64,000 bases of DNA from Pseudomonadales bacterium (GCA_045106985.1 JBGCFQ010000024.1:128502-192501); one strand, 5' to 3'; counted from the first letter of the stretch, positions 4,935 through 28,077 are shown. The notes: generated by a model from the letters alone, not told the origin. Program-made: numbers and translations.

Positions 4935-4985
4935 GCGCTTAGAAATAGCGCGCTCAGTCGTTCCACTAAATAGTTAGTTATCATT

Positions 4986-5765: not shown

Positions 5766-5827
5766 GCAAATGGCCGTTCAATGGCTGAGGATATAAGTGA
5801 GTAAGTGTCGTGTTAAGTAGTAGCGGT

Positions 5828-6772: not shown

Positions 6773-7412
6773 GGTGTGCGCAGTGGTGCCTTTTCGCTCC
6801 TTTTCCAGCGGTAAACAGCGTTTAAGTGCTGCTATGACCAACGAAAGCCGCAGCTTGTTTGTTGAAGCCATGCTAGAAGATACGCTGCGCGCCTTACTGG
6901 GCAGCACACAGCTCGATCGTGTACTTGTACTGAGCAACGACAAAGCAGCAGCAGCCCTGGCGCGTGAGCTTGGCGCAGTCTGCGTGGCCGAGCCAGCGGG
7001 GACGGCTGGCCTGAATGCTGTAGTGCAGGCGACGGCAAATGAATTGAGCCCCTTTTACGACAGCTTGTTAGTGGTACACGGTGATTTGCCACTTTTGCAG
7101 ACAGCAGAAGTAGATCAGCTGATAACCGCACATAAAGAGCTTAAGCAAGCCCCAGGACTTAGCATAGTGCCTGATCGTCATGGCCAGGGCAGCAATTGCG
7201 TTCTAGTGTCACCCCCGAATGCGCTACGCTTTCATTACGGTGCGGGAAGTTTGCCAAAACATCTGGCTTTCGCCAAACAGCACGGCATACTGTCACAGAC
7301 TGTAGAACTGACCGGTGCTGGATTGGATATCGATGTGCCGGATGATCTTGCTGCTCTGCGCGCGCATGAATATTTATCTCTTGCGGTTCGCGTTTCAGCC
7401 GTATTGGAGTAG
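6762..7412 (+). CDS. cofC: 2-phospho-L-lactate/PEP guanylyltransferase
   Basis: 'AVVPFRSFSSGKQRL' and 'VVHGDLPLL' are typical of CofC/FbiD. The GTG start overlaps the cofD stop (alternative GTG at 6774). Confidence 0.75.
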   Translation: MLGKVCAVVPFRSFSSGKQRLSAAMTNESRSLFVEAMLEDTLRALLGSTQLDRVLVLSNDKAAAALARELGAVCVAEPAGTAGLNAVVQATANELSPFYDSLLVVHGDLPLLQTAEVDQLITAHKELKQAPGLSIVPDRHGQGSNCVLVSPPNALRFHYGAGSLPKHLAFAKQHGILSQTVELTGAGLDIDVPDDLAALRAHEYLSLAVRVSAVLE

Positions 7413-7423
7413 TTGGAGTTTTT

Positions 7424-12586: not shown

Positions 12587-14104
12587 ATGAATACGGTAAA
12601 AAATAAACGCTTCACGGTGCCAGCCACCGACATCGAATCGCAACAAAGAAGGCCGCGCCTGCGCGTCCATCCTACGTTGCTCGCCCCACTTTTAAGTCTG
12701 TTTCTGTTCGGTCAATTCAGCCAGGCCGAAACATCTGCTCAGCAGCCCTCTGACTCGGAATCCTCATCTACTTACGTAACCGCCCCGCAACCGGAGGTGA
12801 GTGACAGCGTCAGCGATGCCAATGACCCAAGGTTTGTAAGAGACCAGTACGTGCGAGAAGTAGAGTTGTTGCAGGCACAGTACGGAGCGTACAACAGCGA
12901 GCTGGCTGAGGCCCTACAAGGGCTGGGCGAAGCTCAACAACGGCTTGGCAAACATACTGACGCTATTGAGACACTCAAACAGAGTGCTCACATCACTCGA
13001 ATTAATGAGGGCCTCTTTGCTCCAGCGATCATGCCGATGCTCAACGCCATGGTTGAAAGCTATGCGCATTTGGGCGATTGGGAAGCTGTCGATGACCAGC
13101 ATCACTTCATGATGGAAATTAACGGAGCTAACTACGGCTGGAATGACGAGCGCATGTTGCCAATATTGGACAAGCTTACTCGCTGGCATATGTTCGCGTT
13201 TTTTGAGGCGGTCTCACCAGAGCCTTCGCATCATTTGCATATGGCGAGGTCGTTGTTTTCAGCAGCTTCAAGGGTAATAGAACTCAACTTTGGTCAATAC
13301 GATTTACGCCTGGCGAAGCAGCTACGCGGGCGCCGTATTGCTGATTATTACCTGGCGAGCATTATGGCCGACGAAGCCGAAAGCCAGTTGCGCCTTGAGC
13401 GCATGCAGAGTATCGGCAGAGACGAGAACTTCCGATTCGCTCAAGGAACAAGGACAATTTCACAAGGTTATTTGTCCGGGCTGCGTAGTTCGCGCCATGT
13501 AGTCGATATTTATGAGAACAATGATTCGGCCAGACCTGAAGAAGTGGCGGAAGCGATGGCTGAGCTAGGTGATTGGTATCTCCGCTTTAATAAACGTCAA
13601 TCGGCTATACGCACCTACCTTGACGCCTATAGCTTGTTGAGTGAAAACGCAGAAACAATCGCAATTCGAGATCGGATGTTTGGCCGACCCAAGGTGCTGG
13701 ATTTCGCTACCGATTACTCAGATTACCTAACACCCGCCGGAAAAAAACTATCAACAGGTTATGTTTTACTAGAGCTGGACTTAACCAAAGCCGGGTTGGT
13801 TAGCCGGGCGCAGTTTATTGAAGAGAAGCCGGCGCAGCCTTCAATGCGTCGCCGCGCGTTGCGCGAGCTTCGTAGCCGCCGTTTCAGGCCAAGGTTTGAG
13901 GACGGGGCACCAGTGCCTACGGCGGCGCTTAAGTATCGTTATCGCTACGAATACGCAGGACCGCCGATCTCCGCTTCGAGCAGCGAGCCAAAGCAGGCTA
14001 CTCAAGTAGATAAAGCTGAAGGGACAAAGCTCGAGAATAAAGCCGCTAGCTCAAAACCTTTAAAAGATCATTCGCCCGAAGGGGATTCCGATGCCACATT
14101 GTAA
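12587..14104 (+). CDS. signal-peptide TPR-like helical protein with TonB C-terminal-like domain
   Basis: N-terminal hydrophobic segment ending 'FSQA/ET', then TPR-like helices (for example 'ELAEALQGLGEAQQRLGKHTDAIETLKQS'). The C-terminal 'GYVLLELDLTKAGLVSRAQFIEE...RFRPRFEDGAPVP..LKYRYRYEY' resembles the TonB_C beta-alpha-beta pattern. Confidence 0.45.
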   Translation: MNTVKNKRFTVPATDIESQQRRPRLRVHPTLLAPLLSLFLFGQFSQAETSAQQPSDSESSSTYVTAPQPEVSDSVSDANDPRFVRDQYVREVELLQAQYGAYNSELAEALQGLGEAQQRLGKHTDAIETLKQSAHITRINEGLFAPAIMPMLNAMVESYAHLGDWEAVDDQHHFMMEINGANYGWNDERMLPILDKLTRWHMFAFFEAVSPEPSHHLHMARSLFSAASRVIELNFGQYDLRLAKQLRGRRIADYYLASIMADEAESQLRLERMQSIGRDENFRFAQGTRTISQGYLSGLRSSRHVVDIYENNDSARPEEVAEAMAELGDWYLRFNKRQSAIRTYLDAYSLLSENAETIAIRDRMFGRPKVLDFATDYSDYLTPAGKKLSTGYVLLELDLTKAGLVSRAQFIEEKPAQPSMRRRALRELRSRRFRPRFEDGAPVPTAALKYRYRYEYAGPPISASSSEPKQATQVDKAEGTKLENKAASSKPLKDHSPEGDSDATL

Positions 14105-15101
14105 AATTAAGGTTGTAGCAATATGTGCCTTGCTGGCTGTCTCGGCCTGTAAAGAAAAAGATGAGGAACAGGGCGGTGGTTCGGCAGTGGATCAGGGCAG
14201 TGTTCAAGAGAGTCATTCAAAGCCAGAAGCAAGCGCGTCAACAGCTGAACCTGGGTGGGAAGACGAGAGAGGTGAAGGGCTACCAGGCTTAGGCCAGGGC
14301 GGCAAAAGCGATACGGGCGCGGCGCAACGAGCATCAGATGAAAGAGAGATAGGCCATCGCCTGCCGCCTGCGGCTCCGCAAGCATCAGCCGGCGCTGGAA
14401 CTGGTAACGGACCATTCGGTGGTGCTACTGAAAGTGCCTCTATACCGCTGCCGACAGTGTTCAATGACGGCGACTACGACGTTGATGCTGGCTTGGAAGA
14501 CAGTGACTTTGATGTTGGCATTTCTGTGCCAGGCATTGGCTTACCTAGTATAGGTTTGCCCGGAATGGGTTTACCGGGTGGTGGAAGTTCAGGTGGCATG
14601 GGCGCGCCTAGCGCCGGTCTGCCTGGCGGAAGTGGTGGTGTTGGCGGTTTGGATGATGCTCTTGATGCATCGTTAGAAGACTTTGATGGCGTGGTTTTGG
14701 CAGGTAAAGACGGGGCCCGTGGAATGGAGAATTCAGGTGCTGGAAGTTCATCAAGCGGAGCCGCGAGTAGTGGCAAAGGCGGTGGAAAGGGCGGCGCGTC
14801 TGGTGCCGGTGGTGGCCAGGGAGGAGGGCAATCTCGAATTCCCCCACCACCCTCTGAGTCAGAATCTTCGAGCGGCGGGTCAGGCGGCGGTGGGGAGTCA
14901 GCCAAAGGCGCGAAAGGCGGCCCTAGGGGCTCCAACTCTAAAGGAAAGCAGCCAAACCCGGCTCCAGCCGACTTACAAGATGGCGACGACGATGATCTGA
15001 TTGCGCGCCAAATTAGAGAGGCCGCTGAAAACGAAGAGGATCCTGAATTGCAGGAAAAACTTTGGGACGAATATCGTAAGTACAAGAATGGTCAACGTTA
15101 G
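14091..15101 (+). CDS. lipoprotein with long Gly/Ser/Asp-rich low-complexity region
   Basis: Lipobox 'LLAVSAC'. Repeats 'GIGLPSIGLPGMGLPGGG' and 'GGGKGGASGAGGGQGGGQ' are followed by a conserved-looking acidic C-terminal helix. The start overlaps the upstream gene by 14 nt. Confidence 0.6.
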   Translation: MPHCKIKVVAICALLAVSACKEKDEEQGGGSAVDQGSVQESHSKPEASASTAEPGWEDERGEGLPGLGQGGKSDTGAAQRASDEREIGHRLPPAAPQASAGAGTGNGPFGGATESASIPLPTVFNDGDYDVDAGLEDSDFDVGISVPGIGLPSIGLPGMGLPGGGSSGGMGAPSAGLPGGSGGVGGLDDALDASLEDFDGVVLAGKDGARGMENSGAGSSSSGAASSGKGGGKGGASGAGGGQGGGQSRIPPPPSESESSSGGSGGGGESAKGAKGGPRGSNSKGKQPNPAPADLQDGDDDDLIARQIREAAENEEDPELQEKLWDEYRKYKNGQR

Positions 15102-15191
15102 GCGCCTGCTGGGCTTAACATTATTAACAATGGAAAATCCGTATTTGCCAAGATTTCCAGTTAGTTTCGCTAAAGACTTTGAGAATTACCC

Positions 15192-16403
15192 ATGAGTATT
15201 TCAGTTAAACGCCTGTTAAGCATCGTCGCACTGCTGCTTATGCAAGCTTGCTCTACAACAAACGTAAAAACATCAGATGTACATTTGCTGGATATGGCCC
15301 AGGAGGTGATTCCAGAACATTTACTGTTGGATGTTGGTATCAATATTTTTGATCCGGGTTTGGATTCCGCGGGAGATGATTCGAGCTTGTTTCCAGAAGT
15401 TCGTGAGGGCGAAGCCCGCTATCTGCCATTCAATTTAATGGAGACAATGCAAACGTCTGGTCATTGGGGCGCGGTCCGTGTGGTGCCATCAGAAATTGCA
15501 GCGGTTGATGTGCACGTTAATGGCAAAATACTGGAATCAGACGGTGAACGGTTATTTTTGCAACTGACCGTGTCAGACAGCACTGGTAACTTATGGTTTG
15601 ACCGTGAGTATAAGGAAGTCATTTCTGATTTCGTCTATAAGAAGCGACGGGCTGGCGAAGAGCCCTTTCAATCAATGTATAACCGCATTGCCAATGACAT
15701 CGCTAGCCACCAGGCGTCCTTAAACGTAGCGAGCAAAAACAACATACGAACGGTTGCTGAATTGCGCTTTGCCCAAGATTTTGCCCCTGACGCCTTTGGT
15801 GGTCACCTGAGTATTGATGAAGAGGGTATTCTCTCCATTAAACGCCTTCCTAGTGAAGTAGACCCAATGATGCAGCGGATTCGAAAGATCAGAGATCGCG
15901 ACTACTTGTTTGTTGATACTTTGCAGGATTACTACGGCGTTTTTCATCGGCAAATGGACGTACCTTATCTAGAATGGCGTGAGCGCAGCTACGACCATGC
16001 CGTCGCGATTAGAGAGTTGCGAAAGTCTCGCTCTATGCGCGGTATTGCAGGCGCTGCAGCAATAATAGCGGGGATCATGGCGGTTGGCGGCGGCAATGAC
16101 TATGCTCGAGCTGGTGGCGGAGTCGGCATCTGGGCTGGCAGTAGTCTGATTGGCAGCGCTTTACAAAAAGGCCAGGAATTAGGCCAGCATCAAGCTGACT
16201 TCAATGAAATTAGTGAATCGGTGATTACGGCGATTACTCCGCAGGTTATTGAGCTTGAGGATCAAACTATAACGCTGAGTGGTACTGTTAGTGATCAATA
16301 CGGGCAATGGCGAGAACTGCTGCGTGAGATCTATCGGCGAGAGAATGGGATTACCGCCGGCGATGCCAGCCTAAAATCTCCTGCTGCGAGTGATGAAGGG
16401 TAG
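15192..16403 (+). CDS. lipoprotein with C-terminal glycine-zipper segment
   Basis: Lipobox 'LLLMQAC'. A glycine-zipper-like stretch 'GIAGAAAIIAGIMAVGGGNDYARAGGGVGIWAGSSLIGSAL' lies at about nt 16041-16163. Confidence 0.55.
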   Translation: MSISVKRLLSIVALLLMQACSTTNVKTSDVHLLDMAQEVIPEHLLLDVGINIFDPGLDSAGDDSSLFPEVREGEARYLPFNLMETMQTSGHWGAVRVVPSEIAAVDVHVNGKILESDGERLFLQLTVSDSTGNLWFDREYKEVISDFVYKKRRAGEEPFQSMYNRIANDIASHQASLNVASKNNIRTVAELRFAQDFAPDAFGGHLSIDEEGILSIKRLPSEVDPMMQRIRKIRDRDYLFVDTLQDYYGVFHRQMDVPYLEWRERSYDHAVAIRELRKSRSMRGIAGAAAIIAGIMAVGGGNDYARAGGGVGIWAGSSLIGSALQKGQELGQHQADFNEISESVITAITPQVIELEDQTITLSGTVSDQYGQWRELLREIYRRENGITAGDASLKSPAASDEG

Positions 16404-16411
16404 TATCGTCG

Positions 16412-18007
16412 ATGAGCGAACCCGGAAAGCACACAGATGCAGGAAGAACTGCGGGTACCGCAACTATCGACAGAGGCATTGGTTCGAATATTGAAAACCA
16501 CACTGAGATAGCGCCCCTCAATCTGGATTTTTCTGAACTTGACGCAGTTGACGACATAGTTGCTGGCGCCACTTTAGAGGCGGGTTCACAGAGAGCGCCG
16601 AGGTGGTTACTTGCCACAATCATTGGCTTAGTCATTGCCGCCGTAACAGTCATATTTGTGTTGCCAACCGCTTTATCTCCAGCTGACCAACTCGCTGAAC
16701 AGGATGTGGAAGCTGAAGCCATCACGGCTGACGTAGAAAAGATTGATGAGGGCTCACCTTTTCAAGAAGCCAAACTCGCGCAGCAACGTAAAAACGCGCA
16801 AGACTCGCTGGAGCAATTACTTGAGAAGCAACTCTGGCTGGAAAAACGCAACGTTCAATTGTGGGCGGATAAAGAGTACCAACGCAGTTTCGAGTTGGCT
16901 GCCGAGGGCGATGAATATTATCGTAATCGACAGTTTGAAAAGGCCAATAATCTCTATTCAGAAGGTCTGGCAATTGTTACGAATCTTTTGGAAGGTGTGC
17001 CCGATCGCATCGATCGAAATCTTAAAGCCGGATTAGAAGCATTGCTAGTCAATGATGCTGAGAACGCAGAACAGGCTTTTGTTTTAATTCAGGCGATTCA
17101 ACCAGAGCATGACGGGGCTGCAGAAGGGTTGCAACGTCTTGCGGTATTGCCGTCAGTTAGCAAAGCATTGCAATTAGCTGACCGCTATCAAACCGAGCAG
17201 CAATTGCCTAAGGCCTTGGGCGAATTGCGCACAGTCGTTGAGCTCGACCCAGTGCGCGAAAGCCTGCTGACTGAACGCATAGCTCAGTTGGAACAGGCAA
17301 TTTTGGATCGAAACTTTGAAGAACAAATGTCTCAGGGCTATCAAAGCCTGGATCAGGGGAATCGATCGGCAGCAGCCCAATTTTTTACCCAAGCGAGCAA
17401 ACTAAAGTCTGAATCTACTGAGCCAAAAAAGGCTCTAAGAATGGTGCGCAATCAGCAAGCTCTTAGTCGTATGAGCGTGCATATAGATGAAGCCCGAGTT
17501 CTGGAACGAGAAGAACAATGGGCTGATGCGGTGAAGTCTTACGATGCTGCATTATCAATTGATGCGAACTTGAGTGATGCGGCGAACCGTCGTGCCAGAG
17601 CTGTTACTCGCATGAAGATGGATCAAGCTTTGGTAACACTTAATGATGATCCGTTGCGCCTTGCCGACAACACGATATATGCAAAAGCCGCGAAAATTCA
17701 TGCGGCGGGAACTCGAGTATCTGCTGCGGGACCGAGATTGACGCAACAACTAGAATTGCTGAATAAACAGTTGCAAGCATCTCGAATTTCACTTCCAGTG
17801 CTTATTGAATCTGACGGCTTTACTCAGGTGGCGCTTAGCCGCATTGCGCGTTTGGGTGTTCTTCAGCAGAAGAATTTATCATTGATACCTGGTCGATACG
17901 TAGTAACTGGGAGCCGAGACGGCTATCGCGATGTGCGTCGCGAATTTGAGGTGCCGCAGGGCGCTAGAAATGTACGAGTGGACATTCGTTGTGTCGAGCA
18001 AATCTGA
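16412..18007 (+). CDS. bitopic inner-membrane TPR-repeat protein with C-terminal PEGA-like beta domain
   Basis: A cytoplasmic N-tail is followed by a TM helix 'WLLATIIGLVIAAVTVIFVL' and a long TPR-like helical region. The C-terminus is 'LIPGRYVVTGSRDGYRDVRREFEVPQG' (PEGA-like). Confidence 0.5.
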   Translation: MSEPGKHTDAGRTAGTATIDRGIGSNIENHTEIAPLNLDFSELDAVDDIVAGATLEAGSQRAPRWLLATIIGLVIAAVTVIFVLPTALSPADQLAEQDVEAEAITADVEKIDEGSPFQEAKLAQQRKNAQDSLEQLLEKQLWLEKRNVQLWADKEYQRSFELAAEGDEYYRNRQFEKANNLYSEGLAIVTNLLEGVPDRIDRNLKAGLEALLVNDAENAEQAFVLIQAIQPEHDGAAEGLQRLAVLPSVSKALQLADRYQTEQQLPKALGELRTVVELDPVRESLLTERIAQLEQAILDRNFEEQMSQGYQSLDQGNRSAAAQFFTQASKLKSESTEPKKALRMVRNQQALSRMSVHIDEARVLEREEQWADAVKSYDAALSIDANLSDAANRRARAVTRMKMDQALVTLNDDPLRLADNTIYAKAAKIHAAGTRVSAAGPRLTQQLELLNKQLQASRISLPVLIESDGFTQVALSRIARLGVLQQKNLSLIPGRYVVTGSRDGYRDVRREFEVPQGARNVRVDIRCVEQI

Positions 18008-20093
18008 ACAAACCGAAACAGGCCTTAGCGCTGCGCCGAATGCAACGATTATTGAACCCGTTGCATTCGAGCCAATGGGTGAGCAGGAATTCGCCGCAGG
18101 GCCCGCAGCGTTATGGCCCAAGGCACTAATAGGACTATTTTTTCTGCTTACGGCCTTGGTGTTGTTTTTTCTGTTTACGGCCCGATCCGTATTGATTGAG
18201 CCACAATACAACGGTACTGCTGTCAACAATGCGAAATTTGAGTTAAGTGGCGGAATACATCTTTGGTTTGGCGGCCGTTTCTTGGTTCGCCCTGGCGCGT
18301 TTAGCGCATCAGTAAGTCACCCAGAATACAAAACCGCCAGTCTCGGTTTTCACGTTACTCAGGAGCAACAACAAAGCGTTGTTATCGAGCTGCAGCGAAA
18401 ACCCGATGTGTTTGATGTGAGTACTACACCGCCTGAGGCCGAGGTACTTGTTGATGGAGAGCTAGTAGGCACCACACCATTGATGGGCCTGTCGATAGAA
18501 GCCGGTTCCCGCTCTCTGAGCTTGCGCCACCCTCGCTATCTGCTGGTCGAAGAAGAGCTTCAGGTTGAAGGAGGAGGTAATACTGTCGCTCGAAGTTTTA
18601 ACCTTGAGCCCGCTTGGGCCGAGGTAACTGTTGATACCTTGCCGCAAGGGGCGACAGTGTTTTCTGATGAACGCGAGATTGGTAAAACGCCGCTCACGGC
18701 AGAAGTTTTTCAAGGGCTTCGGCAACTAAGCTTCCACCTTAGTAAATTCAAAACCTCAAGCCAGGAACTGAATGTGATGGCCGGCGACGCTCTTCAGCTG
18801 GAAACAGTCGTGTTAGATCCTGCTGATGCAATGCTGGCATTGGAAAGTACGCCGCTCGACGCCGGCGTATTGGTTAATGGCGTTTACAGTGGCCAAACAC
18901 CCGTAACCGTCGCGCTGAAAGCCGATGAGAATTCTGTAGTGGAGCTGTTTAAACAAGGATATAAAAAGCAAAGTAGAGCGCTAAGCTACTCCGCCGGAGA
19001 GCAGCAGGCTTTGAACATTGCTTTATCCCCGGCTCTGGGTCTAGTGACACTGAACGTCACGCCGGTAGATTCGAGTGTTAGCATAAATGGCCGTTCGCTA
19101 AGCACAAAGCAAACCCTGTCTAAGCGACTCAGTTTACCTTCTGTACCGCAAACTTTCAGGGTAACGCGCAAAGGTTACCTACCTTTTGAAAAAACTATCA
19201 CGCCGAGGCCTGGATTTAAACAAACCTTAAACGTCACTTTGTTAACACCTGCAGCGGCTAAGGCAGCGAAGATCAAATCAGTTTTCCGAAGTGCGGGCGG
19301 CCAGCAAATGCGCTTAATTAAACCCGGCCGAATAACTATGGGTGCTTCTCGTCGCGAAGCCGGCCGTAGAGCGAATGAAAATCTCAGACCGGTTGTATTG
19401 CAAAGACCATTTTATATTTCCGCCACTGAAGTGACCAATGGCGAATACCGAAAGTTTGATTTCAAACATTCCTCCAAGCGTGTGGAAGACAAAAGCCTAA
19501 ATGCTGACGCTCAGCCAGTGGTAAGAGTAGCTTGGGTAGATGCCGCGCAGTATTGCAATTGGTTGAGTGAGCAAGAAGGCTTGGCTCTGGTGTATGAGTT
19601 TAAGGAAGGAAAACTGACAAATGTAGACCAACAGGCATCGGGTTATCGTTTACCAACTGAGGCCGAGTGGTCGTACAGTGCTAGAAAACTGGGCAAAGAA
19701 ATGCTGAAATTTCCCTGGGGCCAGGAGTGGCCAGTGCCGCCTGGTAGCGGAAACTTCGCTGACATCAAAGCGAGCTACATTTTGGGGCGAACACTTCCTC
19801 ATTATGAAGATGGATATACAGCAAGTGCTCCCGTTGGAAAATTTACGCCTAATCAGTATGAGCTTTATGACATGGGAGGAAATGTCGCTGAGTGGGTACA
19901 CGACTTTTATGCTCCAGGTCAGCCTCCAGGTTCGAAAGTGGATCCTTTCGGCCCCAAGGAGAGTAATTACCACGTCGTTCGCGGATCCTCATGGCGGCAC
20001 GGTTCACTGGTAGAGCTAAGGCTTTCTTATAGGGATTATGCAGATCGAGGACGAGATGATCTTGGTTTCAGAGTCGCTCGTTATCTGGATTAA
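17970..20093 (+). CDS. membrane-anchored protein with about 5 PEGA repeats and a C-terminal FGE-sulfatase (SUMF1-fold) domain
   Basis: TM helix 'ALIGLFFLLTALVLFFLF'. Repeats include 'VSTTPPEAEVLVDGELVGTTPL', 'VDTLPQGATVFSDEREIGKTPL', 'LESTPLDAGVLVNGVYSGQTPV' and 'LNVTPVDSSVSINGRSL'. FGE-fold motifs are 'YRLPTEAEW', 'GNVAEWV', 'VVRGSSW' and 'LGFRVAR'. The start is uncertain (ATG 17970 overlaps the upstream gene). Confidence 0.75.
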   Translation: MYEWTFVVSSKSEQTETGLSAAPNATIIEPVAFEPMGEQEFAAGPAALWPKALIGLFFLLTALVLFFLFTARSVLIEPQYNGTAVNNAKFELSGGIHLWFGGRFLVRPGAFSASVSHPEYKTASLGFHVTQEQQQSVVIELQRKPDVFDVSTTPPEAEVLVDGELVGTTPLMGLSIEAGSRSLSLRHPRYLLVEEELQVEGGGNTVARSFNLEPAWAEVTVDTLPQGATVFSDEREIGKTPLTAEVFQGLRQLSFHLSKFKTSSQELNVMAGDALQLETVVLDPADAMLALESTPLDAGVLVNGVYSGQTPVTVALKADENSVVELFKQGYKKQSRALSYSAGEQQALNIALSPALGLVTLNVTPVDSSVSINGRSLSTKQTLSKRLSLPSVPQTFRVTRKGYLPFEKTITPRPGFKQTLNVTLLTPAAAKAAKIKSVFRSAGGQQMRLIKPGRITMGASRREAGRRANENLRPVVLQRPFYISATEVTNGEYRKFDFKHSSKRVEDKSLNADAQPVVRVAWVDAAQYCNWLSEQEGLALVYEFKEGKLTNVDQQASGYRLPTEAEWSYSARKLGKEMLKFPWGQEWPVPPGSGNFADIKASYILGRTLPHYEDGYTASAPVGKFTPNQYELYDMGGNVAEWVHDFYAPGQPPGSKVDPFGPKESNYHVVRGSSWRHGSLVELRLSYRDYADRGRDDLGFRVARYLD

Positions 20094-20108
20094 AAGGCTG
20101 AAAAAATT

Positions 20109-20459
20109 ATGAAAAAAAATGAGCCATTGCATTCGAAAAAATCACCAACAGGAATAATTTTGTTGCTCTGCGTCGCCGTTTGCTTGCCTTTTTCCCCAAG
20201 CTACGCACAGGACGATGAGGATTTTATTATTCTTGATGACCGTGGCGAGGGTTTTGAAGCTGAAGAAGGTGATGTGCCTTTGAGTGGGCGTAAACCACGA
20301 CCGAGTAATACCTTGCCGAACCGCTCCACTGAGAGTACGGCCGGAGCGGAGAAGAGGGACCGTGAGAACGACGTGCCAGCGCCACCACCACCGGTCCGCT
20401 TCGAGCCAACAGAGCGGGTCTCAGAAGATTTATCAGTGTCGTTTCCGGCTGATATTTAA
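20109..20459 (+). CDS. small secreted acidic/Pro-rich protein
   Basis: Signal peptide 'GIILLLCVAVCLPFSPSYA/QDDED'. 116 aa, lying between operon neighbours on the same strand. Confidence 0.45.
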   Translation: MKKNEPLHSKKSPTGIILLLCVAVCLPFSPSYAQDDEDFIILDDRGEGFEAEEGDVPLSGRKPRPSNTLPNRSTESTAGAEKRDRENDVPAPPPPVRFEPTERVSEDLSVSFPADI

Positions 20460-20510
20460 AATCGGAACACAGCTTAAAAGTATCAATCACGTGAGCATTT
20501 GGAAGAGAAC

Positions 20511-21308
20511 ATGAAAAGTAACTTGAGTCGCGAATTCATGTACCAGCTAATTGCGTTATTACTAGCAATTATCGTTGTACATACCGTGTACGTAGGGCTG
20601 ATAAGGCCTAATGCCGCAGAGCTTCTCGCTCACCAAGCGCAGCTACAAGCAGACGGAGGAGCGTATGTTCCTTCAAGATCGATCTATGTGGTACTGAAAG
20701 ACTTTGAACAGGAAACCTGCTTTATATTGGCTATCTGGGCGATTGCTATCATGGGCTTTAAAGCACGCAGTATCACCGGGCAGCGCCTTATGCTGGACCG
20801 AAGTTTGCTAAATATTAGCCCTGGCACAAGCATGCTTCCGGAAGACGCCCGTGATCATTCGCGTGCCTTGCAGGCACTTCCGCAGGAAGAAAAACAGAGC
20901 CTTTTACCCAGAGCACTGCTGATAGGTCTGCAGCGCTTCGGCTCTACGCGAAGCATTCAGGACGTAGCGACGGCTATCAAAGAGGTGTGTGAGAGTGAAG
21001 CCGACAGATTGGACTCCGAACTTGCGATGGTGCGCTACATAGCGTGGGCGATCCCTTCCATAGGTTTTATTGGTACTGTGCGTGGTATTGGCGCCGCGCT
21101 GGGTCAAGCGCACCAAGCGGTGGAAGGGGATATCTCGGGAGTAACCGCTAGTTTGGGCGTGGCATTCAACTCTACGTTTATCGCTCTAGTCGTTAGTATC
21201 CTAATAATGTTCTTAATGCATCAGCTGCAATTGCTGCAAGAACGCTTGGTGTTAGACAGTCAGCAGTATTGCGATACAAACCTAATGCCGCATTTACAAG
21301 TGCACTAG
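20511..21308 (+). CDS. MotA/TolQ/ExbB proton-channel family protein
   Basis: 'WAIPSIGFIGTVRGIGAALG' and 'LGVAFNSTFIALVVSILIMFLMH' match the conserved TM2/TM3 signature of MotA_ExbB channels. The ATG at 20511 is preceded by GGAAGAG. Confidence 0.8.
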   Translation: MKSNLSREFMYQLIALLLAIIVVHTVYVGLIRPNAAELLAHQAQLQADGGAYVPSRSIYVVLKDFEQETCFILAIWAIAIMGFKARSITGQRLMLDRSLLNISPGTSMLPEDARDHSRALQALPQEEKQSLLPRALLIGLQRFGSTRSIQDVATAIKEVCESEADRLDSELAMVRYIAWAIPSIGFIGTVRGIGAALGQAHQAVEGDISGVTASLGVAFNSTFIALVVSILIMFLMHQLQLLQERLVLDSQQYCDTNLMPHLQVH

Positions 21309-21328
21309 CACTGAGTTGGAAAAAAGCT

Positions 21329-22690
21329 ATGTATGACGCTGTAGTTGAACTGAACGATATAGATCTACCCATATGGCAAAGCGGTGACTCTTCTACATGC
21401 CCGGCGTTTGCCCTGCGTGGCGAAACAGGTCTTGTTTTTGGCCATGAGGCTCGTGACCAGGCACGGTTGCATCCTCTCAGGATTAATAGCCGGTTTATGC
21501 AGCAGCTTAGTTTGGTTGAAACGCCGGAGCTTAAACCTCATGCGCGTCATCATGCCGACTTAGCGTACCGATTTTTGCAGTTCGCTCATAGGGGCGCATC
21601 GGCGCCAGAACGTTGCGTTTTTGTTGTGCCGCCTAGCTACACTCAAGATCATATGTCTGTACTGCTTGGCGTTGTTAAACAATGCTCTTTTGACGCGGTT
21701 GGCTTGTTAGATCAAACAGTAGCAGTCGCCAGCCAAGAAGCTGCGCAGAGCAACGGTGTTTTCTGTGATCTACAGCTTCATCAGTTGGTGCTGGGCGCTT
21801 ACCACGTGGAAAATAATGACGTTGTTCGCGGTGCAACACAGAGCGTAGATCAGTTCGGTCTGCAGCCGCTCTATGAGCGATGGGTTCGATTGATAGCTCA
21901 AGCCTTTGTTAAGCAGTGTCGCTTTGATCCACTGCACGACGCAGCGATTGAGCAACAGCTGTGGTTACAACTGCCTGCTATTTTGCAAGAGCAAGCAAAT
22001 GATGAGATGTTCAAGTTTTCCTTGTTGAATAAATATTTGATCGAAATACCGCGTTCCGTAATGCTTGGGCCAGTGACGGAGTTGTTTGCACAATTGCAAC
22101 AAAGGTTGGTTTCATTCGATGGCGATAACGCAGAGTTACTATGCAGTGCTCGCTTAGCCAGCTTGCCTGGATTTCTGACGCTCGACAGTCGACTAAAAAG
22201 CGTTGCTCCAGATAGTGTTGCTAAAGCAGTAAGTAACTTTCAAAGCAAAATTTGCTCGAATACGGCTAATCTTCCGTTCGTTTGTAGATTGCCGATGGGT
22301 ACGCCGAATAACGCTGCTAATATTGCCCCAACTGCAGCCGTCAATCCGGACCCAAGTTCTAGTTCTAACGTAGTGAGGTCGGAAACTTTCGCGATTGACT
22401 ATTCAATAACGCACTTTGTATTGGACGGTGTCGCGCACCCGCTAAAGGAAAATCCATTGTTGCTGAATGGTTTGGGTGCAGCAATTGTTTGGTCGCATCG
22501 CGAAGGTAGCGTAGCGACAGCAATGGTTTCTCTTGAGGAGGGTCGTTGGAGTGTTAAGCGTCTAGATAACGCAGAGCTTTGGCTCAATGGCGAAATACTA
22601 TTGACAGAGTGCGAGGCTGTTCAAAAAGGAGACCGACTAAGTCTTGCAGAAGATGGAGCGGAGTTGAGCTTTATTAGACTCTTAGCGTGA
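21329..22690 (+). CDS. cytoplasmic Hsp70/actin-fold-like protein with degenerate nucleotide-binding loops and FHA-like C-terminus
   Basis: By-eye alignment to DnaK: 'DIDLPIWQS' vs GIDLGTTNS, 'GETGLVFGHEARDQARLHP' vs [17 protein letters not shown], 'VFVVPPSYTQDH' vs [12 protein letters not shown], and 'FCDLQLHQ' vs VYDLGGGT. The C-terminus 'WSVKRLDNAELWLNGEIL...GDRLSL...LSFIRL' is FHA-like. No TM helix or signal peptide. Confidence 0.45.
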   Translation: MYDAVVELNDIDLPIWQSGDSSTCPAFALRGETGLVFGHEARDQARLHPLRINSRFMQQLSLVETPELKPHARHHADLAYRFLQFAHRGASAPERCVFVVPPSYTQDHMSVLLGVVKQCSFDAVGLLDQTVAVASQEAAQSNGVFCDLQLHQLVLGAYHVENNDVVRGATQSVDQFGLQPLYERWVRLIAQAFVKQCRFDPLHDAAIEQQLWLQLPAILQEQANDEMFKFSLLNKYLIEIPRSVMLGPVTELFAQLQQRLVSFDGDNAELLCSARLASLPGFLTLDSRLKSVAPDSVAKAVSNFQSKICSNTANLPFVCRLPMGTPNNAANIAPTAAVNPDPSSSSNVVRSETFAIDYSITHFVLDGVAHPLKENPLLLNGLGAAIVWSHREGSVATAMVSLEEGRWSVKRLDNAELWLNGEILLTECEAVQKGDRLSLAEDGAELSFIRLLA

Positions 22691-22715
22691 TTTTTTCGCA
22701 TAGAGGTTCTCTGTG

Positions 22716-22740
22716 CATCCTAAATTTGCTTTTTAGGATG
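22716..22740 (+). repeat. perfect 9-bp inverted repeat (stem-loop) in the largest internal gap of the operon
   Basis: CATCCTAAA-tttgctt-TTTAGGATG. No T-tract follows it. Confidence 0.6.
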
Positions 22741-22801
22741 AGCAGTAAGTTGAGTTGCAAGAGCAAAGAAATAGAATCGAGACAGTGTTTATGAGTATCG
22801 A

Positions 22802-23887
22802 ATGAGACGAAAAAGAAACGCGACTACCTTTAACCTTTCCTTTCTCGATGTAATGTCGTGCGGGTTTGGTGCGGTCGTGTTGATTTTTTTGATTGTGGAG
22901 CACTCTAGCAGCACTCAGTCCAACGCTGCCAACACTATGGAGCTTGCTGAAGTAAATATGTTGGAGCGCGATATAGAACTGGAAGAACGGCTATCGGCTG
23001 AAGCCCGCAATGCGCTCCGCTTGGTTGATCTCGATATTGTTGAGGTCAGTGGCGCTTCGAAGCGTTTGGTTGACGAGCTGGAAAATCTTAAGGAAGAGCT
23101 AGCGGAGGAAGATTCTGACAGCCTTGCTCGTTTGGAGCATGTCAATCAGCTCAAGACTGAAATAAAAAACCTTGAGAAAGAAATAGAACGCTTACGCTCT
23201 TCGGATGAGGTAGGACAGGGGCGCCGCTCTCGGTTTGTTCGTGGAGAAGGTGAACGCCAGTATTTAACGGGATTGAGGGTTGGAGGACGCCGGATAATGG
23301 TCTTGCTTGATACTTCGTCCAGCATGTTAGACCGTACCGTTGTAAATATATTGAGACTCAGAAATCTGTCAGACGCTAGAAAACGGCAGGCTAAAAAGTG
23401 GCAGTCTGTTGTAGGCACGATGGATTGGTTGACCGCGCAATTCCCGCAGAGCAGTCAGTTTCAAATCTATTCTTTTAATACTGAAGCCAAACCAGTGATC
23501 GCAGACACGGATGGAGAATGGCTATCAGTGAGCGACACCGACATGCTTGAAGAAGCGATGGCGGAAGTCCGTCGCTTAGTGCCCGACGGCGGCACAAGCC
23601 TCGCCAACGCCTTTGAAGCGGTAGAGGGATTCGTGAGTCTGCCCGATAATATTATTTTAATCACTGATGGTCTTCCAACACAAGACAGCAGCCCCGGCAG
23701 CGGGAAGGTAAACAGTGAGAAAAGAATGCGTTTTTTCAGTAAAGCATTGAAACACCTGCCTGGCGGAATTCCCATTAACGTTATTCTCTCACCGATGGAA
23801 GGTGATCCAGCGGCTGCGGCTGCATTTTGGAATCTTGCCGTTGTTACCGGTGGCTCGTTCCTGAGTCCCTCTAAGGATTGGCCATGA
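22802..23887 (+). CDS. ExbD/TolR-like TM anchor - coiled coil - periplasmic vWA domain protein (paralog 1)
   Basis: N-terminus 'MRRKRNATTFNLSFLDVMSCGFGAVVLIFLIV' resembles the ExbD/TolR helix with its essential Asp (nt 22847-22849). A heptad-rich E/L/K segment follows. vWA MIDAS elements are 'VLLDTSSSM', 'GGTSL' and 'ILITDG'. Confidence 0.7.
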   Translation: MRRKRNATTFNLSFLDVMSCGFGAVVLIFLIVEHSSSTQSNAANTMELAEVNMLERDIELEERLSAEARNALRLVDLDIVEVSGASKRLVDELENLKEELAEEDSDSLARLEHVNQLKTEIKNLEKEIERLRSSDEVGQGRRSRFVRGEGERQYLTGLRVGGRRIMVLLDTSSSMLDRTVVNILRLRNLSDARKRQAKKWQSVVGTMDWLTAQFPQSSQFQIYSFNTEAKPVIADTDGEWLSVSDTDMLEEAMAEVRRLVPDGGTSLANAFEAVEGFVSLPDNIILITDGLPTQDSSPGSGKVNSEKRMRFFSKALKHLPGGIPINVILSPMEGDPAAAAAFWNLAVVTGGSFLSPSKDWP

Positions 23888-24876
23888 GATTCAGAAAGCG
23901 CGGCACCGAAGACATGAACGTCGCCTTTCTTGATGTGATTTGTTGTGGCTTCGGCGCCATCATACTATTGCTGTTGATCACCAAGATCATGGATCCAGCT
24001 GCGTTGGAAGAATCCCCACAGGACCAAGAAGCCGCCATCGCGAATTTACAAGAACAACTCTTTGAAATTCGGGGTGATGCCCGCGTATTGAATCGAGATT
24101 TAAACGCCAAGCGCGAGCAGCTCTCAGAGATTAAAGATTATGTCGCACGACTTCAGGGCGAACTCAGAGTATTGAAGGGCGAATTTGATGCAACCGATGA
24201 TGACTCGGCCACCAATACTTTGTTAGCGGGCGAATTAGCAGGGGCGCGCCAGACCTTAACCGAGGAAATGCAACGTTTGCTGGGTGAATCGTCACAGCGC
24301 TCTAATGATTTGATTGGTGGTATACCTGTTGATAGCGAATATCTTATTTTTATTATTGATACTTCAGGATCTATGGTGCAATCAGCGTGGTCGCGTTTGC
24401 AGCGCGAAATTATTGCAACCTTAGATGTTTATCCAGAAGTGAAAGGCATTCAGATAATGAATGATATGGGGAATTATATGTTTACCCGGCATCGCGAAAA
24501 GTGGATGACTGATGAGCCTCACCGACGTCGCGCCATCGTTCGTTCGCTGCAGAACTGGACGCCCTTTAGTAATAGTAGCCCGGTAGAAGGGGTGGAAGCC
24601 GCCATACGGACTTTTTACGAACCCGGTAAAAAGATCAGCTTGTTTGTATACGGCGATGATTTTTCCAGTGGCTCTATTCAAAGAGTATTGCTAACCATTG
24701 ACCGAATAAACCTGGAGGTCAAAGACGGGCAGCGATTAGTTCGAATTCACGCAGTTGGTTTTCCTCATTTGATCTCCGGGCGGGGGATGAAAAGCTCTGC
24801 TTCGCGTTTTGCTGCGTTGATGCGTGAAATGAGCTACCGTAATGGCGGTAGTTTTGTTGGACTGACACCGGAATAA
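23884..24876 (+). CDS. ExbD/TolR-like TM anchor - coiled coil - periplasmic vWA domain protein (paralog 2)
   Basis: N-terminus 'MRFRKRGTEDMNVAFLDVICCGFGAIILLLLI' (Asp at nt 23932-23934), then a coiled coil and the vWA motif 'FIIDTSGSM'. ATGA start/stop overlap with paralog 1. Confidence 0.7.
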   Translation: MRFRKRGTEDMNVAFLDVICCGFGAIILLLLITKIMDPAALEESPQDQEAAIANLQEQLFEIRGDARVLNRDLNAKREQLSEIKDYVARLQGELRVLKGEFDATDDDSATNTLLAGELAGARQTLTEEMQRLLGESSQRSNDLIGGIPVDSEYLIFIIDTSGSMVQSAWSRLQREIIATLDVYPEVKGIQIMNDMGNYMFTRHREKWMTDEPHRRRAIVRSLQNWTPFSNSSPVEGVEAAIRTFYEPGKKISLFVYGDDFSSGSIQRVLLTIDRINLEVKDGQRLVRIHAVGFPHLISGRGMKSSASRFAALMREMSYRNGGSFVGLTPE

Positions 24877-24880
24877 AAAC

Positions 24881-25936
24881 ATGAATGGAGTGTCTAAGTT
24901 GTTAATGAATAGAGTACGGGGGTTTCAAGTGCGGCTTGGCTTGCTGGTTGTGGCGACATTGGCTCTGGCGGCTTGCGCCACGAGCACTGAAGTCGACGTG
25001 AAAGGCACACAGGAGTTTCCAGTGCCATTGGTTGTTAGAGCCGATTTGCACATGGGCATCTATGTTCCAGAAGAGTTCGAATCTTATGTGTACGAAGACT
25101 ACGAAAAGGTAAAGAAAAAGAAGTCCAGAAGTGAAATAAGAGCGGCTAAGAAAATAGCCAAGAAAAAGGCGGAAGATCAAAAAAAGGCTGAGCAAAAGAA
25201 AGCCGAAGAAAAGAACGCCGAGCAAAAAGAGACAGAGCAGGACAAGGTAAATAAGAAGGCAGAACCCTCTAACGACGATGACTCTGATGCAGAGCAGGAA
25301 AAAGCAGCACCGGTATTATCCCTGGCTTCCGCTGATTCCGACGCCCAATTGCAAACTGACGCCGAGGAACAAGCAGCAACAGGAAAAAACACAGCTAATG
25401 CCAACGAAAGCACTGGCTCCGGCGCTGGCAGCTCGGTTGCGTCATCCGCCTCTGCAGCGGCGAAGGATGAATTGCGCTTAAAGTTTCGTATCAGCCTGGG
25501 TGAAGCTCAGGCGAAAATGGTACGCACAGTCTTTCCTGGCGTGTTTCGCCAAACGACGATGCTAGAGTCGCTGGCGCCGGAAAATTTGCCCGACGACATC
25601 GACTTTTACCTAGTGCCGAGTATTACCAAGGTTCAGTACACTACGCCGAAAACCACAAGGTTAAACGTCTATGAGATTTGGTTGCAGTACACGTTTACGA
25701 TTTATGATCGTCGTGGTGATGTGATTACGCGCTGGCGTGTGCCGAGTTATGGGAAAACACCAACGGCCTTCATGAAGTCTAAAGAAAATGCGTTGCAGAC
25801 GGCAACACAGATGGCACTTCGCGATTGCGGGGCGGCGTTTTCTACAGGGTTTAGAACGCAACCGGCGATAGCTCGCTGGCTGCAAGCGCGAGAAAAAAAG
25901 CTCGAGATTCAAACAACTCCTAAGGTAGCAATATGA
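24881..25936 (+). CDS. lipoprotein with Lys/Glu/Ala-rich disordered linker
   Basis: Lipobox 'LALAAC'. The region 'KKKKSRSEIRAAKKIAKKKAEDQKKAEQKKAEEKNAEQKETEQDK' is followed by a folded-looking C-terminal domain. Confidence 0.55.
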   Translation: MNGVSKLLMNRVRGFQVRLGLLVVATLALAACATSTEVDVKGTQEFPVPLVVRADLHMGIYVPEEFESYVYEDYEKVKKKKSRSEIRAAKKIAKKKAEDQKKAEQKKAEEKNAEQKETEQDKVNKKAEPSNDDDSDAEQEKAAPVLSLASADSDAQLQTDAEEQAATGKNTANANESTGSGAGSSVASSASAAAKDELRLKFRISLGEAQAKMVRTVFPGVFRQTTMLESLAPENLPDDIDFYLVPSITKVQYTTPKTTRLNVYEIWLQYTFTIYDRRGDVITRWRVPSYGKTPTAFMKSKENALQTATQMALRDCGAAFSTGFRTQPAIARWLQAREKKLEIQTTPKVAI

Positions 25937-26595
25937 AGCCTACTTACTTAGTAAAGAAACTCATGCTGGTAGTGCTATTGGTGCTCTCAACGGCCTGTAC
26001 CACCACAACGATTGACGAGTACCGACAAGAAGGCGTTGACCTGGTGGCTGGACGCTCTGTTGTCGTGTTGGGTCGCCGGCATACCAGTGGCGCTGTTACC
26101 GAGCCTTTTGTTACTTCCTGCATCTCATCGCAATTAGGCCGTGGAAAGAATCCCATCAGTGTGATTGGCGAGCAAGATTTTCAAGACAGATTGTACCCCT
26201 GGTTTGAGCCTAGAACCGCGCCTTTGCAACTCTCGCGATTGAAAACAGTATTAGCTAAGCCAATCATTGCCAATGAGATTAAGAATATGGGCCTGCAGTA
26301 CATTGTTTGGGTTGACGGCAGCACGCAACGAGGAGCAAGCGCCGGTGGAATGTCTTGTTCTATAGGCGTTGGTGGTGCAGGGTGTCTTGGCTTTGGCACT
26401 TGGGAAGATGATGGTGAGTATGAGCTTTCCGTTTGGGATATTTCGCAAGACAAACCGGTTGCTGAAATGAGCGCCAGCGCGGCGGGCGTTTCTTATATGC
26501 CGGCGGTTGTAGTACCGTTGCCACTAATCGCTCGAGTGAAAACCTCGGTCTGTAACGGCTTGGCACAACAGATCAAGCAGTTGTTTCCTGAATAG
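25933..26595 (+). CDS. lipoprotein, unknown function
   Basis: Lipobox 'LVLSTAC'. ATGA overlap with the upstream gene. 220 aa. Confidence 0.55.
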   Translation: MKPTYLVKKLMLVVLLVLSTACTTTTIDEYRQEGVDLVAGRSVVVLGRRHTSGAVTEPFVTSCISSQLGRGKNPISVIGEQDFQDRLYPWFEPRTAPLQLSRLKTVLAKPIIANEIKNMGLQYIVWVDGSTQRGASAGGMSCSIGVGGAGCLGFGTWEDDGEYELSVWDISQDKPVAEMSASAAGVSYMPAVVVPLPLIARVKTSVCNGLAQQIKQLFPE

Positions 26596-26604
26596 GAGCG
26601 TAGT

Positions 26605-28077
26605 ATGACTTCCCCAACGTCTTTGATTCATTTCTTACTTATAGCCCTCTTGGCTTGCGGAACCCTTTGGTCCGATGACGCTCTGGCGATGTCGGAGAAA
26701 AAAGCGATAAAAATTGGTAAGAAAGCGTATGAGCAAATCATCAACAAAAACCCGCCATACCCCGACGAAGAATTGCAAGCTTATGTTCGAGACATCGGAA
26801 ACAGACTGGCCTCTCACAGTGATTTAGCCGACAAACCCTGGCGCTTCACGGTGCTTGATGACCCCGCCATAAACGCGTTCGTTACACCTGGTTATTTCGT
26901 TTACGTGAATACCGGACTATTGACCTACATCCAATCCGAAGCGCAGCTAGCGGGCGTTATAGGTCATGAAATTGGTCACCTTGTGCGTAAGCACCCTGAC
27001 AGGCAGTCGACAGCCAATGGTTGGACCAAAGCGCTATCAACGATTGCTACGGTTTTGGTCGGTGTAACAACCGGCAGTGGTCAAGCTGCGAGCGGCGCGA
27101 ATCAGTTGGGCTCCTTAGCTGGCACCGCACTCGTTCGAGGTTACGGTCGAGATATGGAGTTGGAGGCTGACGAAGAAGGAGCGAAATACTTATTGGCCGC
27201 GGGTTATCCTCCGGAGGCCATGGTGGATGTGATCGCGGTGCTTAAGGATCAGGAGCGCTTTGCGCGGTTAAAGGCAAAAGAGAAGGGCGCTAGACCCATC
27301 GCCTACCATGGCGTGTTTTCCACTCATCCTCGCAACGACAAGCGATTACAAAATGCCGTTCGAGCTGTGGGCAGTCTGGACGAAGGCGTAGTTGAGCGCG
27401 GCCTGGACGGTGATTTTGAAGAGCATATGGAGGGTTTTAAATTCCTCAACACGCCACTGATATTCCGAACGACTGGCAGTCGCTATCTCAATCGGCCAAT
27501 GGATTTCACCCTGGCGTTTCCAAGCGGTTGGTCGATTAAGTCTAAGGGCTCTGTAATCCAGGCGAAAGGTGAAGGTGGCAAGGCGGTTATCCAAATGCGG
27601 ATCAAAAAGCTGGAGGAAGAAATAACGCCAGAAAAGTATCTTCGCGAAGTTCGGAATTTTAAAACGCTTGAAAATGGCGAGTCTCTGGATAATGAACATA
27701 TTAAGGGTTATTCGGCTATTGTTCCTGCAAACTCAAAATATCCGGCCCGAAGAATCGCTGTCATATTCCACAAGAAAAGGGCCTTCTTGTTCGTTGCTCA
27801 GCTCACCGACCCCAGTATCCCCGAAGCCTTGGCCAGCTTTTATGACACACTTTTTATGGCGAGTTTCTGGAGTTTCAGACCTCTAAACGAATACGATCGG
27901 TCAATTGCCTTATCGCGGCACATTAGTTGGTATCAAGCAGAGCAGGGCGTAAGCTTTGAAGCGCTCGCTGCAGCAAGCCCGATTAAGGAGTTTGCTGAAG
28001 AAGAGCTTCGCTTGATGAATGGCTATTACCCTTATGGCGAGCCTAAAGCAGGAGAATGGCTAAAAATTGTTCGCTAA
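26605..28077 (+). CDS. M48 family zinc metallopeptidase (probable lipoprotein)
   Basis: 'GHEIGHLVRKH' HExxH at nt 26965-26979, a downstream 'ELEADEEGAKYLLAAGYPPEAM', and a possible lipobox 'ALLAC'. AGGAG lies upstream of the ATG. Confidence 0.8.
   Translation: MTSPTSLIHFLLIALLACGTLWSDDALAMSEKKAIKIGKKAYEQIINKNPPYPDEELQAYVRDIGNRLASHSDLADKPWRFTVLDDPAINAFVTPGYFVYVNTGLLTYIQSEAQLAGVIGHEIGHLVRKHPDRQSTANGWTKALSTIATVLVGVTTGSGQAASGANQLGSLAGTALVRGYGRDMELEADEEGAKYLLAAGYPPEAMVDVIAVLKDQERFARLKAKEKGARPIAYHGVFSTHPRNDKRLQNAVRAVGSLDEGVVERGLDGDFEEHMEGFKFLNTPLIFRTTGSRYLNRPMDFTLAFPSGWSIKSKGSVIQAKGEGGKAVIQMRIKKLEEEITPEKYLREVRNFKTLENGESLDNEHIKGYSAIVPANSKYPARRIAVIFHKKRAFLFVAQLTDPSIPEALASFYDTLFMASFWSFRPLNEYDRSIALSRHISWYQAEQGVSFEALAAASPIKEFAEEELRLMNGYYPYGEPKAGEWLKIVR

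Follow-up and report, generated by a model that had tools for sequence, protein, structure and literature searches.

We analysed a 64,000-nucleotide stretch of DNA from a Pseudomonadales bacterium (GCA_045106985.1 JBGCFQ010000024.1:128502-192501; hereafter the window), focusing on gene E (17970..20093, + strand), which encodes a protein with PEGA repeats fused to a formylglycine-generating enzyme (FGE)-sulfatase fold. The most informative feature of E is its context, which the original prediction for this DNA had missed: E sits in a conserved operon with a TolQ-like channel and two ExbD-like von Willebrand factor A (vWA) proteins, and is a core, co-evolving member of this TolQ/transpore-helix (TPH)-vWA cluster. 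This context is the new point: the E family is a fixed part of a predicted proton-motor system that comes with kinase/FHA variants and a translationally coupled peptide. The reading we favour, with moderate confidence, is that E acts as a structural subunit of this envelope system, presenting a calcium-stabilised, non-catalytic binding or docking head on a periplasmic stalk.

Gene E is an open reading frame (ORF) of 707 residues, identical in length to the database protein that it matches, and more than 1,000 homologues share its length and architecture. An alternative start at 17931 (720 residues) is possible; database gene calls and orthologue N termini favour the ATG at 17970, and we number residues from that Met (the longer reading adds 13). 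A cytoplasmic N-terminal tail of 48 residues precedes a signal-anchor transmembrane helix (residues 49–70; 18114..18179, +), defined by hydropathy, by a helix in the AlphaFold2 model and by the orthologue alignment, and this is followed by five beta-sandwiches and the FGE head. The same alignment shows basic residues before the helix and a conserved TARSV boundary directly after it. The AlphaFold2 model was built with a 46-sequence alignment and has an overall predicted local distance difference test (pLDDT) score of 80.

Four of the sandwiches are PEGA domains (residues 145–214, 215–284, 285–354 and 355–426; 18402..19247, +; pLDDT 84–95). The whole of E matches PEGA family PF08308 with an E value of 7.5e-37, and repeats 2–5 scanned singly give E values of 1.4e-10, 1.2e-9, 5.3e-10 and 7.3e-5 (23–41 bits against a gathering cut-off of 20.8). 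The first sandwich (residues 72–143; 18183..18398, +) is a degenerate, PEGA-like domain which, scanned singly, has no PEGA match and no 'TxPxxAxVxxDGxxxGxTPL' signature, only a CarboxypepD_reg match at an E value of 0.02. Because the AlphaFold2 model gives it the same seven-strand sandwich as the other four (pLDDT ~90) despite this, the five repeats of the original prediction stand, four by Pfam and one by structure, although the signature that had been ascribed to each of them is missing from the first. The head (residues 446–704; 19305..20081, +) is supported by Pfam, by alignments to PDB sequences and by Foldseek. Its match to PF03781 (E value 4.7e-42, 144.8 bits against a cut-off of 23.3) covers 252 of 255 profile positions, and the FGE motifs first reported for it, YRLPTEAEW, GNVAEWV, VVRGSSW and LGFRVAR, are all in place, with the Arg of RGSSW at nucleotide 19980.

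In human FGE, Cu(I) is bound by C336 and C341, a role also described in the Tsi3 preprint (bioRxiv 10.1101/2021.05.21.445229), while N259 belongs to calcium site 1 and the A298 carbonyl to calcium site 2 (PMC4375846). Both cysteines fall opposite gaps when E is aligned to FGE with HMMER, which leaves the active-site loop of E two residues shorter, and no cysteine occurs at the active-site region in any of the 46 aligned orthologues. The earlier observation that the stretch after RGSSW is free of cysteine thus holds for the window sequence and for the family. Nor has a catalytic cysteine shifted elsewhere: the sole cysteine of the domain, C529 (AAQYCNW), belongs to the fold-conserved AAxYCNWLS motif, far from the active-site loop. 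W299 of human FGE is replaced by Ala or Ser in the E family and the disulfide cysteines C235 and C346 by Ala and Leu in E, which keeps the equivalent of S333. Since both copper ligands are absent family-wide, the E head cannot be a Cu-dependent FGE.

The calcium sites tell a different story. N259 corresponds to D598 in E, and D273, N293 and E300, reportedly the further calcium ligands of human FGE (Dierks et al. 2005), correspond to D614, D634 and E641; all four side-chain ligands are invariant in 46/46 orthologues. Of the two losses anticipated for an alignment to characterised FGEs, that of the cysteine pair is therefore real, whereas the calcium ligands are retained. The head is also the most conserved part of E, with 60 of 262 positions invariant among the orthologues compared with 20 of 354 in the stalk. 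Its invariant stretches include the remodelled former active site, RGSSWxHGxxxELRLSxRD, and a family-specific Arg-rich loop, GASRREAGRRANE, is conserved as well. Residues of the former active-site groove include S674, W675, H677, E682 and R684. The head is a maintained, calcium-stabilised fold whose groove has been rebuilt; it is not an enzyme in decay.

Loss of the cysteine pair, first regarded as striking, was overrated. The FGE superfamily comprises ~130,000 representatives at 50% identity (E value ≤1e-3), and of the 55 nearest FGE-domain ORFs that are not orthologues, recovered from other phyla, not one has a C-x4-C pair. Such loss is ordinary for the PF03781 superfamily, and Cys-less FGE folds have been published before in PorK/GldK, PvdO and Tsi3. 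Comparison of the modelled head with known structures, an approach that had been proposed with PvdO-like proteins in mind, indeed gave PvdO as the best Foldseek match (5hha; 28% identity, template modelling (TM) score 0.61), followed by true FGEs, TvpA and CarF. The FGE structures 1y1e, 2q17 and 6muj are matched with a probability of 1.0 and TM scores of 0.55–0.57, and PorK ranks lower by structure because of its insertions. By sequence, the top PDB match of E is PorK (2.7e-21) and the top NCBIfam model is GldK; E falls far short of every NCBIfam equivalog cut-off.

No substrate for an FGE is linked to E. Pfam PF00884 has no match among the 49 window ORFs of at least 150 residues, and a PS00523-type sulfatase signature is absent from all six frames of the 64-kb window, in agreement with the original prediction. 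The sulfatase signature is equally absent from 457 kb drawn from 26 orthologous loci.

E belongs to a tight cluster of genes that all run in the same direction (12587-28077, +), 13 in number, which we letter A to M. The cluster is a conserved operon of 7–13 genes in marine bacteria, with E as a core member. Between unrelated flanks, ~24 loci share the core order B-C-D-E-(F)-G-(H)-I-J; they belong to Pseudomonadales, Cellvibrionales (Luminiphilus, Porticoccaceae, SAR92), Pseudohongiellaceae, Woeseiaceae, Lysobacterales, Arenicella, Steroidobacteraceae, the alphaproteobacterium Sneathiella and deltaproteobacterial metagenome-assembled genomes. Sneathiella has E plus the core neighbours B-C-D-G-I-J, and two complete-genome-scale contigs carry the same cluster within unrelated flanks. 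The cluster also occurs in the cultured genera Microbulbifer, Simiduia, Gilvimarinus and Parahaliea. In the window, genes D and E overlap by 38 nucleotides.

Three genes downstream of E make up the putative motor. Gene G (20499..21308, +) encodes a MotA/TolQ/ExbB-like channel (PF01618, E value 2.3e-15), and its orthologues, found in 22 loci, are 36–78% identical; pairwise BLAST of G against Escherichia coli TolQ is not significant, and the evidence for G is the Pfam match. Genes I (22802-23887, +; VWA_2/VWA_3 Pfam matches) and J (23878-24876, +; transmembrane helix, coiled coil and a vWA domain with a metal ion-dependent adhesion site (MIDAS)) encode distinct proteins that share a layout of basic N terminus, transmembrane helix, coiled coil and vWA domain. 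The helix has the core xSFLDVxxCGFGA (FLDVMSCGFGAV / FLDVICCGFGAI in the window), and its Asp, which aligns with D23 of E. coli TolR (EINIVPLLDVLLVLLLIF), is kept in every I and J orthologue with a correctly called N terminus. The MIDAS motif DxSxS is intact in I and J at all loci. None of the 13 cluster proteins matches the ExbD/TolR Pfam family.

These features fit a proteobacterial family in which a TolQ-like protein and a heterologous TPH-vWA pair are predicted to form a 5:2 proton-driven motor, with function unassigned (PMC12204202, Mol Biol Evol 2025): in the window a tolQ-like gene adjoins two different transmembrane-vWA genes, with no tolR or exbD. That paper covers the motor genes alone, to which the present analysis adds B, C, D, E, F, H and the kinase/FHA variants; neither its text nor the two supplementary files that can be searched as text mention FGE, PEGA or sulfatase. 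In the literature searched for a combination of PEGA, FGE, ExbB and vWA, no description of E or of the cluster beyond the motor genes was found, and a homologue search with protein I returned only close orthologues. A Zorya-like anti-phage defence system was considered separately and rejected: PADLOC gave a marginal ZorA match for G (E value 0.004) and nothing for E.

Directly 3' of E lies gene F (20109..20459, +), which encodes a small secreted protein and has a positional homologue in nearly all loci (L001-L026). F starts with a signal peptide, continues with low-complexity sequence that is acidic and rich in Pro, and ends in a conserved C-terminal peptide, PTERVSEDLSVSFPADI-COOH, the consensus in nearly all loci being F-x-P-[ST]-E-x-I-S-[EQ]-D-x-x-V-x-F-P-x-D-I-COOH. 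In seven loci the start codon of F shares nucleotides with the E stop codon (ATGA), which points to stoichiometric co-production of the two proteins and in turn makes F the most obvious candidate partner for the E head or for the MIDAS sites of the vWA proteins.

The orientation of E in the membrane can be read from its orthologues. In eight loci (L008, L009, L011, L014-L016, L020, L021) E is ~800 residues long and carries an extra N-terminal domain of ~110 residues. A Pfam scan of these extended orthologues missed this domain; a profile search against the PDB found it to match FHA domains (Rv1747, Ki-67, afadin, KIF13B, FhaA, EmbR and GarA; range 9e-5 to 2e-2, with Rv1747 at 8.9e-5). At seven of the eight loci (L008, L011, L014, L015, L016, L020 and L021; the exception is L009) D aligns with an N-terminal Ser/Thr-kinase-like extension, and Pfam PF00069 was found in both of the D orthologues scanned (3e-26 for L011 and 3.8e-24 for L020). 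The window version of E has no FHA domain and that of D no kinase domain. Because the FHA domain, which is N-terminal to the transmembrane helix, and the kinase domain are cytoplasmic, E is a bitopic N-in/C-out protein with its stalk and head in the periplasm.

The cytoplasmic tail of E itself contains a motif, I28-x-P-x-x-F33-x-P35 (IEPVAFEP; 18051..18074, +), in which I28, F33 and P35 are nearly invariant among the 46 orthologues and which is followed by basic residues in many of them. Its distribution resembles that of gene H (21329..22690, +), which encodes a cytoplasmic protein recognized, through orthologue profiles, as like the Hsp70 nucleotide-binding domain with a degenerate FHA domain. 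The listed TTG start of H at 21269 overlaps G, and the ATG at 21329 fits the orthologues better. Window H has no Pfam match of its own; the orthologue profile matches the nucleotide-binding domain of DnaK weakly (4.8e-4) and FHA domains (1.2e-4) in the PDB, and H orthologues bear a C-terminal FHA domain (PF00498, 1e-9 to 2e-11) that is degenerate in the window protein. H is missing from several loci. A motif-like sequence is present in 12 of the 12 assessable loci that have H and lack an FHA domain on E, and is missing from all three loci without H (L023, L024 and L026); L019, where the N terminus of E is lost at a contig end, was left out of this comparison. The association of motif and H is only suggestive since the three H-less loci are also the most divergent.

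Taken together with the topology, these data are consistent with the following arrangement. E is a bitopic inner-membrane protein with a short tail in the cytoplasm. Its five beta-sandwiches would form a rigid periplasmic stalk, long enough to bridge much of the periplasm, at the end of which the FGE-fold head would serve in non-catalytic, calcium-stabilised docking or binding. The core of the system would be a pentameric TolQ-like channel (G) and a heterodimer of the transpore-helix vWA proteins I and J, accompanied by TPR proteins and lipoproteins. The tail motif may dock the Hsp70-like/FHA protein H, while candidate partners for the head are the C-terminal peptide of F, an outer-membrane lipoprotein and the vWA domains. 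E might then connect an ion-driven motor to the outer envelope, as PorK does in the T9SS (type IX secretion system) or as do TolA, TonB and GltG. A periplasmic ligand- or target-binding module held on a PEGA stalk had been proposed from the outset. The FHA-bearing orthologues now place it outside the cytoplasm and the model supports the stalk; that the head binds a partner is still argued from its strong conservation and by analogy with PorK and Tsi3.

The comparison with PorK is instructive. PorK has a periplasmic Cys-less FGE-like fold and is described as a 'structural hub' beside the PorLM motor (PMC12421860); in PorK/GldK (and GldJ) of the Bacteroidota T9SS and gliding machinery, as in E, such a fold is encoded beside a proton-driven motor. 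PorK is, however, a lipoprotein of the outer membrane and forms a 32-33-mer ring with PorN by means of two large insertion domains, whereas E is an inner-membrane protein with a transmembrane helix and PEGA stalk. About 180 residues of PorK (about 70-250) have no counterpart in the compact E head, and E scores 130.6 bits against GldK TIGR03525 (cut-off 350), matching only the C-terminal part of the profile. E has no lipobox, having an internal signal anchor instead; no PorN/GldN-like gene was found in the cluster by Pfam or NCBIfam, and the motor of the cluster is TolQ-like, not PorL/GldL. The resemblance between PorK and E is probably one of convergent use of the fold and not of orthology. 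PvdO and Tsi3 are, like the E head, compact periplasmic Cys-less FGE folds, but they are soluble, single-domain proteins of pyoverdine and type VI secretion system (T6SS) effector clusters. No pvd genes occur in the E cluster, and E scores 76.4 bits against PvdO NF051459 (cut-off 500). Tsi3, an FGE-like T6SS immunity protein, works by protein-protein binding (bioRxiv 10.1101/2021.05.21.445229). Genuine FGEs (human SUMF1 and those of S. coelicolor and T. curvata) share with E the fold, the calcium sites and the RLPTEAEW, GN-x-EW and LGFR motifs; they differ in having the C336/C341 pair, a longer loop, W299 and the C235/C346 disulfide, and in E the domain is fused to a transmembrane helix and PEGA stalk, with no sulfatase linked to it.

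In layout, E resembles TolA, TonB and GltG, each of which starts in the cytoplasm, crosses the membrane with one helix and continues through a long spacer in the periplasm to a globular binding domain at the C terminus, and is encoded with a TolQ-family motor. GltG comprises an FHA domain, a transmembrane helix, a spacer and TonB_C, and works with AglRQS (PMC11761067); a cytoplasmic FHA domain is thus common to GltG and the extended E orthologues. The spacers of these proteins are helical or Pro-rich and their head is TonB_C, whereas E has five beta-sandwiches and an FGE head, and in the E system it is the vWA proteins that are the proposed transducers. The transmembrane helix of window E (ALIGLFFLLTALVLFFLFTARSV) contains no SHLS motif or His, and the consensus of the 46 orthologues has no conserved His. 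Because E lacks the insertions, the lipid anchor and the SHLS/His motif, its likenesses to PorK and to TolA/TonB are not homology.

Several observations weigh against a docking head in a motor-linked envelope system. The absence from E of the PorK insertions, the lipid anchor and the TolA/TonB SHLS/His motif is one of them. The C-terminal half of the FGE head has a pLDDT of only 45–70 in the AlphaFold2 model, and the length of the stalk is an estimate, with about 18–20 nm expected from five domains. The strong conservation from which a binding role of the head is argued would also be in keeping with an enzyme. That the tail motif and H occur together is phylogenetically confounded, there being only three H-less loci.

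A more specific and more tentative version of the structural role would make E the coupling arm, or PorK-like hub, of a proton-driven trans-envelope machine in which a TolQ-like pentamer holds a heterodimeric ExbD-like/vWA rotor, the remodelled groove of the E head capturing the C-terminal peptide of the co-translated F or an outer-membrane lipoprotein and a Ser/Thr-kinase/FHA switch operating in some lineages. We regard this as possible, and as less secure than the docking role itself.

Rather unlikely, in our judgement, is that E is mainly a transmembrane sensor, whose head would detect an environmental or envelope ligand and relay the signal through the membrane to the tail or FHA domain, H and the kinase of D, so regulating the motor. 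The occurrence in several lineages of FHA domains on E and H and of a kinase domain on D speaks for such a role, as does the co-occurrence of the tail motif with H; kinase-fused FGE domains are moreover common (PDB 5nxl was deposited as a Ser/Thr kinase; ToxD is 7spq). E itself nevertheless carries no enzymatic output domain, the window version of the system has no kinase and a degenerate FHA domain on H, and the rigid five-domain stalk and translational coupling of E to F suggest a structural role. The sensor and structural roles are mutually compatible.

It appears improbable that the head is a different kind of enzyme in disguise, using residues other than Cys to act, say, as a PvdO-like oxidoreductase or to modify a cluster protein such as F or B. 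The family has specific invariant polar residues that could be enlisted (R461, E463, R466, H500, S502, D645, S686, D689 and D697), PvdO is the best structural match, and NCBI gives one orthologue the generic name 'SUMF1/EgtB/PvdO family nonheme iron enzyme'. The NCBIfam PvdO score, however, is far below its cut-off (76 versus 500), E has neither an EgtB-type His triad nor a DinB domain, and the cluster offers no redox partner, cofactor site or small-molecule pathway. Moreover, the Cys-less relatives whose function has been tested, PorK and Tsi3, work by binding, and catalysis by PvdO is itself unproven in vitro (bioRxiv 10.1101/2021.05.21.445229).

We give very little weight to the idea that E is an independent envelope or adhesion protein and its motor neighbourhood incidental. 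A distant PEGA-FGE paralogue (27% identity) in an uncultured Pseudomonadales (L027, 9021-10628) has no cluster genes in its 20-kb flanks and shows that the PEGA-FGE architecture is also used outside this system. For E, by contrast, gene order and orientation are kept across classes despite different flanks, the junctions with D and F overlap as described above, and the cytoplasmic parts vary in step with neighbouring genes. Finally, the strong PF03781 match, the calcium sites and the retained S333 equivalent notwithstanding, the reading of E as a genuine FGE with a shifted cysteine, maturing sulfatases encoded elsewhere, is effectively refuted by the position of C529, the shortened loop, the W299 replacement and the want of a sulfatase signature in the window and the orthologous loci.

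The remaining genes of the cluster flank this core. Upstream genes A, B, C and D (12587..18007, +) were assigned by Pfam and by synteny in at least 20 loci. Gene A encodes a TPR protein with a TonB_C-like domain, and gene B (14091-15101, +) a lipoprotein with a long Gly/Ser-rich low-complexity linker and a conserved acidic C-terminal helix; a 203-residue antisense ORF over B (14474-15085, −) is probably a compositional artefact. Gene C (15192-16403, +) encodes the core lipoprotein, 403 residues long and without a family match. In its AlphaFold2 model (pLDDT 79) an N-terminal alpha/beta domain is accompanied by a long helical hairpin that contains a Gly-zipper; the weak likeness of the alpha/beta domain to the TolB N-domain (Foldseek E value 5.5e-3) is a hint only. 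Orthologues of C are found in cultured Cellvibrionales (Microbulbifer, Simiduia, Gilvimarinus, Pseudomaricurvus, Aestuariicella and Exilibacterium). Gene D (16412-18007, +) was identified by Pfam as a transmembrane-TPR protein with a PEGA-like C terminus. This C-terminal beta-sandwich has weak PEGA, CarboxypepD_reg and Phage_tube_C similarity (E values of 1e-4 to 5e-2), so that both bitopic proteins of the cluster may carry related periplasmic sandwiches.

Downstream of the motor genes come K (a lipoprotein), L (a Cys-rich lipoprotein) and M (24881..28077, +), assigned through PF01435 and synteny in gammaproteobacterial loci. In L (25933-26595, +), four cysteines and a GPGGAGCFGFGTWE-like motif are invariant; the profiles of C and L have no significant match among PDB sequences. 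M (26605-28077, +), an M48 metallopeptidase (PF01435), closes the cluster in gammaproteobacterial loci and may be a BepA-like envelope quality-control protease. Just upstream of the cluster lies an F420 biosynthesis set (4260-9964, +) comprising an F420-dependent NADP oxidoreductase, CofE, CofD, CofC and a fused CofG/CofH radical-SAM protein of 846 residues; such a full set seems uncommon for a marine gammaproteobacterium.

Cys-less FGE folds were already known as binding scaffolds, and by itself the domain adds little. The significance of E lies in the system to which it belongs. TolQ/TPH-vWA motors, predicted in 2025 without described partners, are now given a conserved parts list: beside the PEGA-FGE stalk protein and the small secreted peptide coupled to it, this has TPR proteins, an Hsp70-like/FHA protein, an M48 protease and three lipoproteins, with kinase and FHA modules as options. 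The JGI label 'formylglycine-generating enzyme required for sulfatase activity', carried by many E orthologues, is a misleading annotation. Since the cluster is present in cultured genera, the function of the motor is open to genetics and structural biology. Should E prove to be the PorK-like hub of its machine, a Cys-less FGE fold would have been taken up twice, independently, as an adaptor between motor and envelope in two unrelated motor systems, the T9SS and this one.

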